Positions 6,720 through 11,457 of a stretch of DNA of 48,802 nucleotides are shown here, one piece after another (within the stretch, counting starts at the first letter, position 1; each line of letters begins with the position of its first letter). The position numbers and the translations under genes were made by a program. The DNA lies in IMG/VR virus record IMGVR_UViG_3300045974_000160, positions 1-48,802 of that record; one strand, given 5' to 3'. Source of the stretch: a virus. The notes under the pieces were generated by a model. That model did not search any database, was not told the origin of the DNA, and worked only from the letters and a program-made list of their open reading frames with translations.

Positions 6720-8290
6720 GGCTCTTTCCACCCATGGACTTGCTTTAACGCCTCTTCAATTTCAACTGCCCGAGACCTTGGCAACATGGCATAATCCTTC
6801 GCAGTTTCCTCGCCATCGTCTTCATCATCCGGCCCCGTAATCTCCCGATTAACCTCTAGCCCCTGATAATCAGATTCAGGGTCATTTGCAATGCGTTGGC
6901 GAGCTTCATCCGGGGCGATAACGCCATTATTGATATTAACCGCGTCAGTGTCGGCCTTGACTTTTTCAATGTCGGCCTTTTCCTTTGGCGTCATTTCGTC
7001 AAGGCTTACAAAGTCAAACGTAATATCGTCGTCAATTTCGCCCCATAGATTTAGCCCGATGACTTGGAAAACCTTTTCCAAATTGGCACGAAATAACACG
7101 TCTTGCATGGCTGTGACATACTCATGCCAAACTTTAATCTCACCCTCGCTAGTGGCGTTCAGCCCGCTTGGCGTGGTTCCGAACATGTATATCAACGGCT
7201 CCTTGGCAACTGTCGCCATCATTTCTTGGGATTGTGCTTGGAGCTTGTCAAGTCCATTTAGTGGCGTGTTGAATTGAAAAAATTCCTCCCTGTCTTTATC
7301 CATAATGAACAGCCCGCGATTATCCCGCATGGCATTATAAAGCCGTGCGCGGTTTTCCATTTCCTGCGCCATACCGGGCTGCAACAATGCTTCCAAGTCG
7401 GTTTTAATGCCTGATACGCTGTAGCTGTGGATAATATCCGAAACGCTATCCCTTGTGCGTAAGAAATTATTAACGTATTGCTCGGCAAGCTGCGACAGGC
7501 TTAATCCGCCAAAATTATAAGACGCCTTCAATAAATCAGGCAGTGGACGCGATATGAATAGCAATAGCCGCGTATCGTGTACATCCTTGCCCATAACATA
7601 CCACCGGCTAGGCTTGTACCAGTCTTTGTCTAGCGGATTGCTTGAATTGTATTGGTTTGGATATGTCCAGACAGGTTCAACTAACTTTAATCGAACTAAT
7701 GATCCTTTTTTAATCTTCGCCTTATCAAGTATAAGCGGGAGTTTTAATTCTTCTTCATCATCGCTTGCTAGTACGCCGGACGGTGTTTTGACTTCGATAT
7801 ATATTTGCCCGCGCCCGTAGAATCCATCCATTTCAGCCGCGTATTTGAATAAATCGCGCACATTAAAATCCTTTAGCGCCTGTTCCATTTCGCTAACGCG
7901 GTCAGTTTTATCCTTGTCGCCTTTAGATTCAACATTAATCCATTTACGCACCATGTGCTGCGCAATGTCTTCGCTGATTTTGCGGAATTCAGGCTGTTGC
8001 GACAACAAGGCAAGATAAGGGTATCCCTTGAATGATACCCCGGCATATGTCGCATTAACGTAATTATACGGGGTTTCATCCATCGCAAGCGCGGCCTTGC
8101 GCTTGGCTTCGGGTATCACGCCTTTTGGCGGAACATAAGGCACAATCTCGGCAGACGGCTTTTTATGCTCAAGAATAGCCAGCAATTCTTGAGTTATTAC
8201 CCATTTCTTAATCTCTTTGGCAATTGGATTAAGAATTGGCGCAATCATTGATTTAACGGCGGATTTTGTCTTAGACTTAAAAGGCCACAT
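6716..8290 (-). CDS. Portal protein (524 aa, DUF1073-like)
   Basis: Size and position immediately after the large terminase, with an acidic C-terminus. Confidence 0.8.
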   Translation of the reverse strand: MWPFKSKTKSAVKSMIAPILNPIAKEIKKWVITQELLAILEHKKPSAEIVPYVPPKGVIPEAKRKAALAMDETPYNYVNATYAGVSFKGYPYLALLSQQPEFRKISEDIAQHMVRKWINVESKGDKDKTDRVSEMEQALKDFNVRDLFKYAAEMDGFYGRGQIYIEVKTPSGVLASDDEEELKLPLILDKAKIKKGSLVRLKLVEPVWTYPNQYNSSNPLDKDWYKPSRWYVMGKDVHDTRLLLFISRPLPDLLKASYNFGGLSLSQLAEQYVNNFLRTRDSVSDIIHSYSVSGIKTDLEALLQPGMAQEMENRARLYNAMRDNRGLFIMDKDREEFFQFNTPLNGLDKLQAQSQEMMATVAKEPLIYMFGTTPSGLNATSEGEIKVWHEYVTAMQDVLFRANLEKVFQVIGLNLWGEIDDDITFDFVSLDEMTPKEKADIEKVKADTDAVNINNGVIAPDEARQRIANDPESDYQGLEVNREITGPDDEDDGEETAKDYAMLPRSRAVEIEEALKQVHGWKEP

Positions 8291-8292
8291 GA

Positions 8293-10647
8293 TTAACCGC
8301 CGTATCGTTTGAGTGTTTCACTGGTTATGTTGAGCGGTCTTCTTAATTCAACAAAGGCCATTATAAATGCGTCAGCGCAATTACGGACAAGAATTCCATT
8401 TGCATAATATACATTATGTTTATCCAATGTTATATTATAGACATCCCTTTCTTTTAATTGCATATGTGCATTTTTTTGAACATCCTCTTGTAGTTTTATC
8501 TCTTTTTCTTGCTGCCGGATGGTTAAATTCTGTTCCGCAATTTTCACATCTTGAGGTATGCGCAACTTGTGCGTTTCTATTGGCCCTGATTGTTGTACAA
8601 GCTTTTGAGCAGCATTTAGAGCGATGCGGCTTTGTTGTAAGATATAAATTCCCGCATACTTCGCAAACAAGTTGCGTTTTAACAATATTTTGTGCAACAA
8701 TTTTAGCGTGTTCGGAATGCCATTTTCTGCCTTCATCTGATTTATGCCATTCAGTTGCTTTTTCTCTTGCAATATCGAGAATTTTATTATTTTTTTCCCT
8801 ATATTCTTCATCCATGAATCTTTCAAGCATATGTTGGCTTTGATGAATTGCAGAATCAATACATTCAAGGTTTTCAATTCTATTATCTTTCCAATCGCCA
8901 TTGATATGGTGTATGTGGCAATTTTCAGGAATTTTCCCGTTATGATCGACCCATATGCGCCTGTGTAAAAGTCGCTCATTTCCAATGTTTTTCCCTCCAT
9001 GCCTTCCTGAGCAATAGTATTTACCTGTATTGAGAACTGAGAACACCTCTCCTTTGTAAACAATAGATTCATTATTTGCCATGATGACCACCTATTTTTA
9101 AGTGGCTCTAGTTTATCACATGACGTAAGCATCTGCAACTGCTTCCATCCTTCATTCCATGTAAAAACATGATGGCTTGGCGTTCCAGTAAGACCAATAT
9201 TTTCTATTACTTTGGCTTTATTTTTGTGAATATGCGTTATTTTTGATATTCCCATTGGAGTGATAACAAAATCCCCTTTTTTTAGTTTTTCTATAGGTTG
9301 TTCTCCTGATGGTGTAGCTATTAAAGTTCCATCAATGAAACAGTTAGGGGAATCAATATCCCGTTTTTCTAAATCTTTTTTTGATTCGACAATAACCTTG
9401 CCGTCTTTCGCAAAATCCTTTCGCGGTGTACATAACTCGTCTATCAATTGAGTCAAATTAGGTATATCAGAGGATATAAATATCATCTCATCCGGCCTAA
9501 ATTCCACGCCATCTCTGATAGCCTGATAGGTGTTTTTCAGTCTATCCGCAATATCCCACCAAGCCTGTGCTTTGATGTTTGAAAAAAAGTCCTTGTTTGT
9601 TAGTTTTGTGTCTTTATACCGCGAATCAGGCTTGTAAACCGTGCCGCCTGCAAAGAATCCTGTATGGCTTATTCTAACGTGTTTCCCTTCGTTTAGGTCG
9701 TTAACCATGCCGCCAACCGATGCGCCTACGCCTATCGCGTCATAGATTATTTCCGCTTCCCTTGATACCGCTTGGGCATAAACTCTTTTAGTCGATTTAG
9801 GCAATTCATCTTCTTTGGCTTTCCATAAGTCAGACCATATTGCAAGTGGCCCATGCGCGTAGATTTGAGCGCATTTATCCTTGCCTGCGTCTGCCACGTC
9901 AAAACCGATGCGCCGACTGCCTGATATATCAATTCCCAGTTTGATATGCGCGTCAATCGCCGCCATAACCCAACTACGCTTAATAATAGACTCATCGTCG
10001 TTGTCGTTTGGCTGGCCTAGGTATATGTGATTGAATGTGTCAATATCCCTTTCTTTAGCGTCTGATATTTCCCTTAAGGCGGTATCGCTTAAAAATGGAT
10101 TATCATTGTAATTTATTCCCATCTGTACTGAGTCAGATGGCGGGTTTACAACAAAGTTTTTCCAAATAAAATCAGTTGATAAATGAGGATTAAATATATT
10201 CCACATTTGCGCACCTTGTTTTCTAAACAAAGTTGGCGCTAATATGTCGTGCTGATCTTTTGTATATCCCTCTGCTTCCTCGTTCCATGTTATGTCAATA
10301 TTTGACAATCCTTTTATTTCAGATATTGAATGCTTTATTCCGTAGAATTTAAACTCACTGCCTGTTTTATGGTTTATTATTTCATTCGCTAATATCGTGA
10401 ATTGATCTTCCTTGCCTAGTTTTTCTATCTGTGATTTTAATTCTTCATATACACTGTCTTTTATTCTTTTTTGAATCTGCCTTGTGCATACAAATCTAAT
10501 TTTCCCTAAACAAGCTAATTTAATAGCTTTCTCGGCTGCGCTCCATGTTTTGCCGGACATTCTGCCGCCATATAGCGTTACATATCTAATGTCGGGAGCA
10601 AATGCCTTTAACCAAAACTCCTCAAGTTTCGGATTGGAACAAGCCAT
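8293..10647 (-). CDS. terL: Terminase large subunit precursor (784 codons) containing a 321-residue intein
   Basis: Walker A YGGRMSGKTW and a nuclease-domain motif split as DIDSPN|intein|CADAFIMAF. The exteins total 463 aa. Confidence 0.9.
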   Translation of the reverse strand: MACSNPKLEEFWLKAFAPDIRYVTLYGGRMSGKTWSAAEKAIKLACLGKIRFVCTRQIQKRIKDSVYEELKSQIEKLGKEDQFTILANEIINHKTGSEFKFYGIKHSISEIKGLSNIDITWNEEAEGYTKDQHDILAPTLFRKQGAQMWNIFNPHLSTDFIWKNFVVNPPSDSVQMGINYNDNPFLSDTALREISDAKERDIDTFNHIYLGQPNDNDDESIIKRSWVMAAIDAHIKLGIDISGSRRIGFDVADAGKDKCAQIYAHGPLAIWSDLWKAKEDELPKSTKRVYAQAVSREAEIIYDAIGVGASVGGMVNDLNEGKHVRISHTGFFAGGTVYKPDSRYKDTKLTNKDFFSNIKAQAWWDIADRLKNTYQAIRDGVEFRPDEMIFISSDIPNLTQLIDELCTPRKDFAKDGKVIVESKKDLEKRDIDSPNCFIDGTLIATPSGEQPIEKLKKGDFVITPMGISKITHIHKNKAKVIENIGLTGTPSHHVFTWNEGWKQLQMLTSCDKLEPLKNRWSSWQIMNLLFTKERCSQFSIQVNTIAQEGMEGKTLEMSDFYTGAYGSIITGKFLKIATYTISMAIGKIIELKTLNVLILQFIKANICLKDSWMKNIGKKIIKFSILQEKKQLNGINQMKAENGIPNTLKLLHKILLKRNLFAKYAGIYILQQSRIALNAAQKLVQQSGPIETHKLRIPQDVKIAEQNLTIRQQEKEIKLQEDVQKNAHMQLKERDVYNITLDKHNVYYANGILVRNCADAFIMAFVELRRPLNITSETLKRYGG
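8380..9342 (-). mobile_element. Intein within terL (residues 436-756)
   Basis: Starts CFIDGTLIATPSG (block A), contains LTGTPSHHVF (block B), and ends VYNITLDKHNVYYANGILVRN followed by a +1 Cys. Codon positions were checked on the sequence. Confidence 0.8.
8435..9091 (-). CDS. HNH endonuclease ORF nested inside the intein in a different frame (218 codons from GTG; ATG at 9082)
   Basis: HNH motif CHIHHINGDWKDNRIENLECIDSAIHQSQH and C-terminal CEVCG / CENCG zinc-ribbon pairs. GGTGG lies 6 nt before the ATG, and a TAG stop lies immediately upstream. Confidence 0.8.
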   Translation of the reverse strand: MVIMANNESIVYKGEVFSVLNTGKYYCSGRHGGKNIGNERLLHRRIWVDHNGKIPENCHIHHINGDWKDNRIENLECIDSAIHQSQHMLERFMDEEYREKNNKILDIAREKATEWHKSDEGRKWHSEHAKIVAQNIVKTQLVCEVCGNLYLTTKPHRSKCCSKACTTIRANRNAQVAHTSRCENCGTEFNHPAARKRDKTTRGCSKKCTYAIKRKGCL

Positions 10648-11152
10648 TTCTTATGTCTTCAAAGCTTAATGCTTGCGGCACTGGTTTTTGTTCATTATCC
10701 TTTTTGTAAAGACCATGGTGCTTAAATAGAGTATCCAAAGCTTTTCCCTTATCCCAAAACTTTATCTTGGTTTCTTTTCCGACAACAGCGCCATCTTTTT
10801 CTATCTCTTTTATTTCAATTGACGCAATCGCAGCCCGTGTTGATTTTTTCATTTTGCGCACAGGTAGAATTTTTCCATTTTCATCAAATATATTCGCAGG
10901 ATCACTTAATGCAATATATCCGGCTTCCCTTACAACCGCGTCGGCGGTTACTTGGGTACGCATCCCCCTTTCATACATTTCCTTATAAATATAATCCTTT
11001 AGTTTACGATAAAGCTTTAACCCGTTTAGTCTTATTCCCTTAGTGCTAGGGCTAATGTTTTTTGCCCTACAATATGCCTGAGTCATATTAAGGTCAACTA
11101 AATATTGTTTAATGAATTCCCTTTCCAAATCTGATAATTTATCGTAATCCAT
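10622..11152 (-). CDS. terS: Terminase small subunit (176 aa, Terminase_2/P27-like)
   Basis: N-terminal HTH-like NMTQAYCRAKNISPSTKG. It lies directly upstream of terL and overlaps it. Confidence 0.7.
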   Translation of the reverse strand: MDYDKLSDLEREFIKQYLVDLNMTQAYCRAKNISPSTKGIRLNGLKLYRKLKDYIYKEMYERGMRTQVTADAVVREAGYIALSDPANIFDENGKILPVRKMKKSTRAAIASIEIKEIEKDGAVVGKETKIKFWDKGKALDTLFKHHGLYKKDNEQKPVPQALSFEDIRNGLFQSET

Positions 11153-11154
11153 GT

Positions 11155-11457
11155 TTATTTACTCAAAAAGTCCTCGCAAACTACAATTGCGGGAGGGTAT
11201 CCAACTTGTCTATCGGGCGGGTTTTTAATGCAATACCCCTCCCAAGAACGGCTTATACAATCGCCGCACGTTGCGGGCTTTTCTTCCCATTGCAGACAGC
11301 TTGCGTGAACAGATGCTTCCCGCAATAAATGACCGCATTTATTACACCGCACATAACCAAATACCAGCCCATGCCGCATATCGCATTCCGGGTTGTCACA
11401 CGCCATGCCGTATATGCGGGTTGTTATTGCAGCCATTGGCTGTTTATTATCGTTCAT
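11155..11457 (-). CDS. Cys-rich hypothetical protein (100 aa)
   Basis: CDNPEC...CNKCGH...CGDC suggests zinc binding. Coupled ORF. Confidence 0.55.
   Translation of the reverse strand: MNDNKQPMAAITTRIYGMACDNPECDMRHGLVFGYVRCNKCGHLLREASVHASCLQWEEKPATCGDCISRSWEGYCIKNPPDRQVGYPPAIVVCEDFLSK

Follow-up and report, generated by a model that had tools for sequence, protein, structure and literature searches.

The large terminase gene (terL) considered here lies on the minus strand of IMG/VR virus record IMGVR_UViG_3300045974_000160, and the window is the whole of the stretch analysed, 48,802 nucleotides (nt) in length. The gene hosts an intein, and the interior of this intein is also open, in another frame of the same strand, as a gene for an HNH endonuclease. 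An earlier examination of the letters alone, which we call the sequence-only reading, had reported terL as open for 784 codons, had placed an intein with blocks A, B, F and G at residues 436-756, splitting the motif DIDSPN|CADAFIMAF, and had noted an HNH open reading frame (ORF) with its own Shine-Dalgarno (SD) sequence and ATG at 9082, a TAG just upstream and a TAA in block F. These features are borne out by the list of ORFs, by alignment and by the sequence itself (Table 1).

The terL frame, 784 codons plus stop without interruption (8293-10647), encodes a protein that matches Pfam Terminase_3 (1.5e-29, residues 22-212) and the terL families of PHROG. When the intein is taken out, the resulting TerL of 463 amino acids matches Shigella phage Sf6 gp2 (PDB 4idh) at 8e-65 over residues 16-443; the alignment runs across the junction and the host motif is restored, with SPN-CADAF aligning to SPNLADAL of Sf6 gp2. 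The split falls 28 codons ahead of the end of terL, in the last conserved nuclease motif (SPN|xADA). The acidic residue of this C-terminal motif is part of the RNase H-like active site in TerL nucleases, and for that reason DNA packaging should require splicing of the intein.

The intein starts with CFIDGTLIATPSG, contains LTGTPSHHVF and ends with VYNITLDKHNVYYANGILVRN followed by Cys. Pfam Hint_2 matches at residues 436-477 (2.3e-9), and a weak Intein_splicing match spans residues 468-756. Eight intein positions are invariant in 32 relatives (C1, G31, H57, V301, A314, L318, V319 and N321), among them the class-1 nucleophile, Cys436 at position 1. The TxxH motif of block B is present as GTPSHH, with T54 nearly invariant, and block G reads ...ILVRN|C, the +1 residue being C or S in every relative. 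The sequence-only reading had pointed to a penultimate Arg in place of the usual His. The Arg is indeed there, but it is no anomaly, as this position varies across the relatives (S, H, R, K, E, G, A and F). In an AlphaFold2 (AF2) model built on the 32-sequence alignment, pLDDT (the predicted score of the local distance difference test) is 91-97 for residues 1-88, 85-96 for residues 298-321 and 34-70 for the linker between them. Foldseek returned HINT domains alone for this model (gp41-1, DnaB, RecA and BIL; probability 1.0, 80-100 columns). Sequence and model together identify the element as a class-1 intein, with a HINT fold predicted to form from its N- and C-terminal parts. The linker had been described as low-information sequence with neither a LAGLIDADG nor an HNH motif, and this holds in the structural searches, where neither the AF2 model nor Foldseek gave an endonuclease fold or any other non-HINT match in the linker frame. 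The GC content of the intein is ~35%, compared with 47% for the portal gene, but the 5' part of terL is as AT-rich as the intein, and the difference does not speak for a foreign origin.

The same DNA is predicted to encode a folded protein when it is read in the shifted frame. Blocks B and F flank an ORF of 218 codons (9091-8435) whose offset is +2 (1556 nt counted from the start of terL), so that ~650 nt are read in both the terL and the HNH frames. Its translation matches Pfam HNH_3 (4.4e-15, 55.5 bits against a cutoff of 24.8) and HNH families of PHROG, and Hint and HNH profiles thus match in the two frames in which the sequence-only reading had predicted them. The window protein keeps all 16 residues that are invariant in 53 homologues, which comprise the HNH core, with H58, H59, N67, N71 and H80, among them the catalytic His/Asn/His, and eight cysteines (C140, C143, C158, C162, C179, C182, C201 and C205). 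The cysteines form two Cys4 modules, each modelled as a strand-hairpin plus helix, which are presumed to be zinc-ribbon DNA-binding modules. The AF2 model of the HNH frame has a mean pLDDT of 90.2. I-HmuI (1u3e) comes out as the best match in the PDB, both by sequence profile (E 1e-3) and by Foldseek (probability 1.0, E 0.03); the fold match is modest, with a template-modelling score of 0.32-0.38 over 113 columns, and covers only the N-terminal half of the protein. On this profile and model evidence, we assign the product as a putative HNH_3 / I-HmuI-like homing endonuclease.

Table 1. Features of the terL locus in the window and the basis of each assignment
Feature	Position	Strand	Basis
terL precursor ORF (N-extein, intein and C-extein)	8293..10647	-	ORF list, Pfam, PHROG
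N-extein, residues 1-435 (ATPase domain and most of the RNase H-like nuclease domain; end ...KRDIDSPN)	9343..10647	-	
Intein, residues 436-756 (321 amino acids), Cys1...Asn321 then Cys+1	8380..9342	-	Pfam, invariant columns, Foldseek
Hint N-terminal half, intein residues 1-88 (blocks A and B including GTPSHH)	9079..9342	-	AF2 pLDDT 91-97, Pfam Hint_2
In-frame linker, intein residues 89-297, stop-free, without confident fold	8452..9078	-	pLDDT 34-70, no non-HINT structural match
Hint C-terminal part, intein residues 298-321 (blocks F and G, VYNITLDKHNVYYANGILVRN)	8380..8451	-	pLDDT 85-96, invariant columns
C-extein (CADAFIMAFVELRRPLNITSETLKRYGG plus stop), with conserved xADA motif of the TerL nuclease	8293..8379	-	Alignment to Sf6 gp2 ...SPNLADALMMC
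HNH endonuclease gene, 215 codons from ATG 9082 or 218 from GTG 9091, stop TAA 8437-8435, offset +2 relative to terL	8435..9082	-	
HNH catalytic core (CHIHHINGDWKDNRIENLE...H)	8843..8971	-	Pfam HNH_3, residues 41-83 of the 218-residue ORF
Two Cys4 modules (CxxC...CxxxC, twice), C-terminal half of HNH protein	8468..8665	-	Invariant cysteines, model
SD-like AGGTGG, 5 nt upstream of ATG 9082, within terL codons	9088..9093	-	
TAG stop shutting the HNH frame directly ahead of its start	9092..9094	-	
Intein-less terL site for the window, ...GATATTGATTCCCCTAAC|TGCGCTGACGCATTT...			

Two open frames and selection on one of them

Outside the overlap, frame +2 of terL meets a stop every ~10-12 codons, while in the overlap it meets none for 218 codons; frame +1 has stops throughout. 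The sequence-only reading had put the number of stops expected by chance at about 10, and resampling agrees with this estimate. When the HNH ORF was resampled synonymously with the local codon usage, a mean of 9.4 stops appeared in the terL frame, and the converse resampling gave a mean of 9.7; not one of 20,000 sequences was stop-free in either direction. The burden at offset +2 is about half that of the other frame (9.4 compared with 19.3). In nine free-standing homologues the equivalent frame contains 1-17 stops, compared with 0 in eight embedded homologues. The possibility of indels at 8380-9342 had been raised, and an assembly of run SRR35489233 has identical DNA over 6,355 nt; it is a separate assembly that may or may not come from a separate sample. 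The two open frames are not a product of chance.

The question of which of the two frames is constrained can be addressed by comparing the window with its relatives. IMG/VR contig L013 has the same arrangement in the same Terminase_3 host. Between the two N-exteins, the differences at terL codon positions 1, 2 and 3 number 163, 133 and 253, which is the usual wobble pattern. In the overlap these counts become 64, 89 and 72, with the peak at terL position 2, that is, at HNH position 3, and the amino-acid identity is 59% in the HNH frame compared with 44% in the linker frame. Five terL genes of C. difficile phages have 1, 14 and 7 variable sites at the three terL codon positions of the overlap. 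Across 250 pairs drawn from 40 loci, identity averages 37.4% for HNH and 26.1% for the linker, with the higher value for HNH in 242 of the pairs, and the mean BLOSUM62 score per column is 1.09 compared with -0.04. These loci keep the overlap over a GC range of 25% to 64%. Taken together, the codon-position and amino-acid patterns and the AF2 confidence show selection on the HNH frame, with the terL-frame linker only kept free of stops.

The signals for translation of the HNH gene are found within terL codons. The duplex of AGGTGG with the anti-SD sequence has a predicted energy of -6.5 kcal/mol; among the 122 start-like codons inside terL this ranks in the top 2.5%. Within their own gene, 6 of 11 loci reach such a rank, and in 4 of these no other internal start-like codon has a matching SD sequence. 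The combined probability for SD strength ahead of the HNH start over the 11 loci is 6e-9 (Fisher). At the other end, the HNH stop is anchored in block F, where 6 of 8 loci use the third base of a conserved Tyr codon, TAT, followed by AA (of Asn) or GA (of Asp). Because of this anchoring, the HNH gene fills exactly the interval from block B to block F, which is the usual place of intein endonuclease domains. In the window (8435-8443, minus strand) TAT and AAT give T|AA, in Highwayman and LS06 (L002 and L004), two phages described below, TAT and GAT give T|GA, and the ORF extends a few codons further where the Tyr-based stop is absent (L013 and phage TJE1). A scan of 8200-9500 for promoters and terminators gave no more sites than shuffled sequence, and a separate promoter for the HNH gene is therefore unsupported.

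Relatives with, beside and without the endonuclease

A tblastn search with the HNH protein found homologues within the annotated terL of Clostridium phage phiCDHM19, Acinetobacter phage Highwayman, Tetrasphaera phage TJE1 and Rhodobacteraceae phage LS06-2018-MD07 (LS06). All four have a single open terL ORF that includes an intein, with the HNH gene at offset +2. The same arrangement is found in four contigs resembling C. difficile phages and in the genes of two metagenomic proteins that were found via the in-frame intein.

More distant relatives were found with a profile of the in-frame linker alone, searched against 1.84 billion representative proteins. At E <= 1e-3 this search gave at least 162 clusters at 50% identity, and conservation of the linker is only possible as a by-product of the HNH gene. 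All 32 sequences that were inspected have Hint blocks on both sides and an extein junction of the same type (...HDD|CD.., ..SPN|CAD.. or ..DH|C.D..), and this includes P0026, which was missed by the regular expression (...HDDL|CLVGKT...ILVHN|CDAA). For three distant matches taken at random (L025-L027), the DNA contains HNH at +2 in every case. The exhaustive search was needed, as a word-indexed protein search with the whole in-frame intein gave just 2 matches and one with a Hint-only profile just 8 short fragments, the latter still exposing mini-inteins at the same site.

A scan with the intein alignment of one genome per GTDB species gave 44 full-length loci. They come from Nostoc, Bacteroides, Prevotella, Flavobacteriaceae, Selenomonadaceae, Lachnospiraceae, Clostridium, Frankia, Rhizobium lusitanum, Sutterella, Thiobacillus, Burkholderiaceae, Planctomycetales, Luteolibacter, Simkania, Patescibacteria, Nitrospiraceae, Acidobacteriota, Omnitrophota and several archaeal metagenome-assembled genomes (MAGs). 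The HNH profile matches frame +2 in 42 of the 44 (E 1e-32 to 1e-70), with a long stop-free stretch, and matches frame 0 or +1 in none of them. The intein frame is stop-free in 39 of the 42 loci with HNH. Adding the phages and metagenomes, 53 independent loci, prophages of many bacterial phyla among them, share offset +2 at the same TerL nuclease-motif site, and an HNH domain in the Hint frame, as in a canonical bifunctional intein, occurs in none of the 42 genome loci and none of the 11 phage and metagenome loci. Because the offset is common to all 53, an indel artefact is excluded, including the pair of compensating indels that could have brought HNH into frame with the Hint blocks. The exteins belong to very different terminase families (~20-30% pairwise identity), and the intein always sits at the same motif. 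The MAGs that carry the arrangement in archaea are L028, L035, L057 and L081 (an unclassified archaeon, Woesearchaeota, Methanimicrococcus and Nanobdellota); these could represent archaeal viruses or contamination during binning.

The closest called HNH proteins, at ~55% identity, are encoded by free-standing genes 74-90 nt downstream of an intein-less terL. The empty site in those terL genes reads SPN|LAD or SPN|RSD, and in one of them (L022) it lies ~140 nt upstream of the endonuclease start. More distant homologues, also free-standing, separate terL from the portal gene or lie upstream of the small terminase gene (terS), examples being those of Lactobacillus CL2, Exiguobacterium EauM-23, Sphaerotilus SN1, Pseudomonas FBPa53, Salmonella Shemara and Acinetobacter BP10. 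The free-standing homologue adjoins terminase genes in all phages and contigs that we examined (L005-L010, L022 and L023), and this suggests that the whole HNH family targets them. Mini-inteins of ~130 amino acids with no HNH occur at the same site (P0247, P0249, P0250 and L054), and the C-extein of P0250 resembles that of Highwayman. The distribution is sporadic in Acinetobacter phages, where AB1, IME-AB2 and others have related terL DNA and no HNH match. Among the C. difficile phages, 2-3% of intein sites vary, compared with 20.7% of sites in the N-extein, a pattern that fits recent horizontal spread of the intein-HNH unit. The pairwise identities of Hint and HNH were also compared as a measure of co-evolution; distant pairs all fall at 30-45% (Spearman 0.22, p 0.25), and the measure is uninformative.

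Several further observations concern these and neighbouring genes. Some terminases carry two or three inteins (P0010, P0013 and P0066), and P0066 has an in-frame LAGLIDADG intein as well as an HNH-overprinted intein at the C-terminal site. The record of Clostridium phage phiCD119 (AY855346; L020, 200-2595) differs from phiCDHM19 by eight single-base indels within terL and annotates a truncated terL gene and a 'hypothetical protein'; the indels are probably sequencing errors of an old record, and they hide the intein. In an Acidimicrobiales MAG (JAHDDW010000049.1; L070, 1258-3462), a helicase gene has a related Hint intein whose interior contains a same-strand ORF of 221 amino acids (1658-2323, offset +1) with a DUF559 / Vsr-like match (Pfam 1.2e-9) and an N-terminal CxxC...CSxxC module, which is a further type of out-of-frame intein endonuclease in another host gene and another frame. 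In the window, an ORF for a Cys-rich protein of 100 amino acids (11155-11457, minus strand) lies immediately upstream of the small terminase gene (10622-11152; Terminase_2, Logan annotation). A megablast of half of the window against phage records returned nothing, which means that those records contain no close sequenced relative of the phage.

Interpretation and comparison with known systems

The best explanation of the locus, to which we give a probability of roughly 0.85, is that of a contiguous mini-intein on which a homing endonuclease gene of the HNH type, translated separately, is overprinted. This is what the sequence-only reading had proposed, and it is supported by profiles, folds, conservation and the SD sequence. 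Translation of the terL frame would give a precursor of 784 amino acids, in which the two Hint parts (about 88 and 24 residues) would fold together across an unstructured linker of ~210 residues, and the Hint domain would then excise the intein to leave the Sf6 gp2-like TerL of 463 amino acids. The DNA of the linker would in reality be a homing endonuclease gene read at offset +2. On the same mRNA, ribosomes would start at AGGTGG-N5-ATG (9082) and make a free protein of 215 amino acids, predicted to consist of an I-HmuI-like HNH nuclease core followed by the two Cys4 modules. If it acts as other homing endonucleases do, this protein would cut or nick intein-less terL alleles near the insertion site during co-infection, and through repair the empty allele would gain a copy of both the intein and the endonuclease gene. 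The steps that we infer are thus the splicing itself, the separate translation of HNH, the specificity of its cleavage, and homing.

Looking at the observations that weigh against this explanation is also useful. Three of the genome loci (L031, L057 and L061) have one stop in the intein frame, although their +2 frame still matches the HNH profile and is long open; they could be decaying prophages, or could reflect recoding or assembly errors. The AF2 model of the intein was built on only 32 sequences, with the Hint halves serving as an internal control in the same model. The window and L013 are about equally diverged in extein, Hint and HNH (53-60% identity), and because of this the lineage of the window gives no sign of recent mobility. 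A recognisable SD sequence before the HNH start is missing in 4-5 of the 11 loci, from which it follows that the mechanism of initiation is not uniform. Additionally, a predicted 8-bp hairpin at 9087-9106 on the minus strand (GCCACUUA / UAGGUGGU, loop AAAA) would sequester the SD sequence of the HNH gene. The RNA fold at the HNH start is no more stable than that of shuffled sequences (z -0.57, 101-nt context) and the hairpin over the SD sequence is not kept in L013, and for these reasons we make no claim of translational control.

Other explanations of the hidden gene have to be weighed against the same data. The HNH protein might be an accessory nuclease of packaging, like HK97 gp74 of cos phages, that is not or no longer selfish and is kept because the phage needs it. 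This would suit a long-lived arrangement and the fact that every free-standing homologue examined adjoins terminase genes, whether between terL and portal or upstream of terS as in Acinetobacter BP10. The HNH proteins needed for cos cleavage (HK97 gp74 and related proteins) typically sit in the latter position. We nevertheless consider such a role unlikely, given that the distribution is sporadic, that the 215-residue HNH_3 / I-HmuI-like protein with its zinc modules is not of the gp74 type of ~100 amino acids, that the gene occupies the canonical position of an intein endonuclease, and that the C. difficile intein-HNH unit, near-identical across such divergent terL alleles, bears the signature of horizontal spread. 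It seems more improbable still that the HNH ORF is a decaying relic, residually open inside an intein that still splices, whose endonuclease is no longer made or active. The homing-cycle model does have endonucleases decay after fixation, HNH-less mini-inteins do exist at the site, and the lineage of the window is the very one with no sign of recent mobility. A relic, though, is difficult to reconcile with the intact set of 16 invariant residues, with the lack of any stop in 215 codons at 37% GC, with the retained strong SD sequence, with the purifying selection that the wobble pattern and the higher amino-acid conservation of the HNH frame show, or with the HNH profile in a long stop-free +2 frame of 42 of the 44 full-length genome loci.

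The most conventional alternative is a bifunctional intein with HNH in frame, obscured here by sequencing indels or reached through two programmed ribosomal frameshifts. An in-frame endonuclease is indeed what canonical inteins have, and phages are known to possess inteins with HNH in frame according to work cited in one preprint (10.1101/2025.01.02.630785). The comparative data effectively refute this alternative, and we give it hardly any weight. The 53 loci come from different laboratories and technologies and all have offset +2 with both frames open, which also led us to reject a sequencing artefact, and the separate assembly of the window has identical DNA. A double frameshift was rejected on the comparative data and on the TAG directly before the HNH start, which confines a shift to a few nt that contain no slippery heptamer; a second shift back would be required as well, and the terL frame need not stay stop-free if it were not translated. 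A group I intron was likewise rejected, as the ORF is continuous and flanked by Hint blocks.

The sequence-only reading had suggested that the overprinted gene could be an intermediate in the association of intein and endonuclease. On this point the distribution leads elsewhere. Because the overprint persists over deep divergence (HNH identity ~30-40%, GC 25-64%) and across many phyla, it looks like a stable and ancient arrangement and not a fleeting intermediate. A broader proposal, which we hold tentatively and at somewhat less than even odds, is that of a large, ancient and undescribed intein family at the last TerL nuclease motif, found in bacterial and possibly archaeal viruses, in which HNH has been overprinted at +2 since a single origin.

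If this proposal is right, overprinting would be an evolutionarily stable cooperation between an intein and a free-standing endonuclease gene, and no brief stage on the way to a split intein or an in-frame fusion. The 'splicing first, endonuclease invades' model has four states, and one gene family would then contain three of them, namely the empty site with a neighbouring free-standing HNH gene, the HNH-less mini-intein and the overprinted intein; the fourth, the in-frame fusion, was not found among the loci. These natural states allow the model of endonucleases joining pre-existing splicing domains to be tested experimentally. For the study of overlapping genes, the locus offers a clean two-frame case, in which one frame has all of the sequence constraint and the other just avoids stops. 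There is also a practical side, since gene callers report just the long terL ORF, leaving the endonuclease invisible in most records and the intein resembling a mini-intein with a meaningless linker. Because splicing should be needed for DNA packaging, terminase inteins are possible control points in phages, including the C. difficile and Acinetobacter phages of therapy research.

Out-of-frame endonucleases in inteins have been reported in preprints of 2025-2026, which trace the idea to Gorbalenya 1998, 'Non-canonical inteins', credited with the first suggestion in 10.64898/2026.09.14.751524. The general type is thus already described, while the HNH_3 TerL family is apparently large and undescribed; our literature search found no paper on this family, nor on the phiCDHM19 or TJE1 cases. 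The closest published system is the TerL intein of actinophages, reported as rare and limited to actinophages, for which the supplement names Keitabear, Sedona, Affeca and Angelicage. Its authors also describe antisense LAGLIDADG and Vsr-like cases and propose that free-standing endonuclease genes invade inteins, an origin proposed for both systems. Like the window, these phages have a class-1 intein in a Terminase_3 TerL with both frames open and an in-frame part that has no recognisable fold, and in the Keitabear sequence, which we checked, the splicing blocks likewise flank a same-strand endonuclease ORF whose offset is +2. In contrast, the Keitabear ORF is of the Endonuclease_7 type (CVDHDHETGRVRGLLCNDCN), where the window has an HNH_3 / I-HmuI-like protein with two Cys4 modules, and its intein sits in the ATPase domain (VLVM|C...HN|TRWHEDD) and not at the C-terminal SPN|CADA nuclease motif. 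The actinophage type is also reported from one group of phages, whereas the HNH_3 TerL family extends over many phyla and at least the 162 clusters given above. To judge from these sequences, the window intein is a separate lineage with the same architecture.

The cyanobacterial dnaX intein of Phillips, DeSimone and Gogarten (bioRxiv 10.64898/2026.09.14.751524) likewise has an out-of-frame endonuclease ORF overlapping the linker. By dN/dS, its endonuclease frame is under purifying selection while constraint is relaxed in the intein frame, the same asymmetry as seen here, and mini-intein alleles coexist with it; it differs in its cellular host gene, its LAGLIDADG endonuclease and its restriction to a single phylum. 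In the fractured genes of Dassa et al. 2009 (PMC2677866), an endonuclease gene of free-standing type with its own start occupies the canonical intein position, a phage terminase being among the cases, and short stretches of coding sequence overlap the downstream intein half. The host ORF of a fractured gene is split into two genes that are rejoined through splicing in trans, whereas terL of the window, as in its relatives, is one continuous ORF. In ShiLan (Arsenault et al. 2025, PMC11855218), an insertion that is open in the frame of its host, an actinophage DNA methylase, conceals an HNH gene in a shifted frame, and the same question of how a hidden HNH is translated arises. That insertion lacks a splicing domain, and the host protein presumably tolerates it as a loop, unlike that of the window, which is flanked by intact Hint blocks. 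The nicking HNH homing endonuclease I-HmuI of Bacillus phage SPO1, the best PDB match by profile and fold over the N-terminal half, is the product of a gene in a group I intron, and its C-terminal domain is of the helix-turn-helix type, in contrast to the two Cys4 modules of a protein encoded inside an intein. What is added here to these systems is a lineage that is large and taxonomically very broad, always at offset +2, with free-standing and mini-intein counterparts at the same locus.

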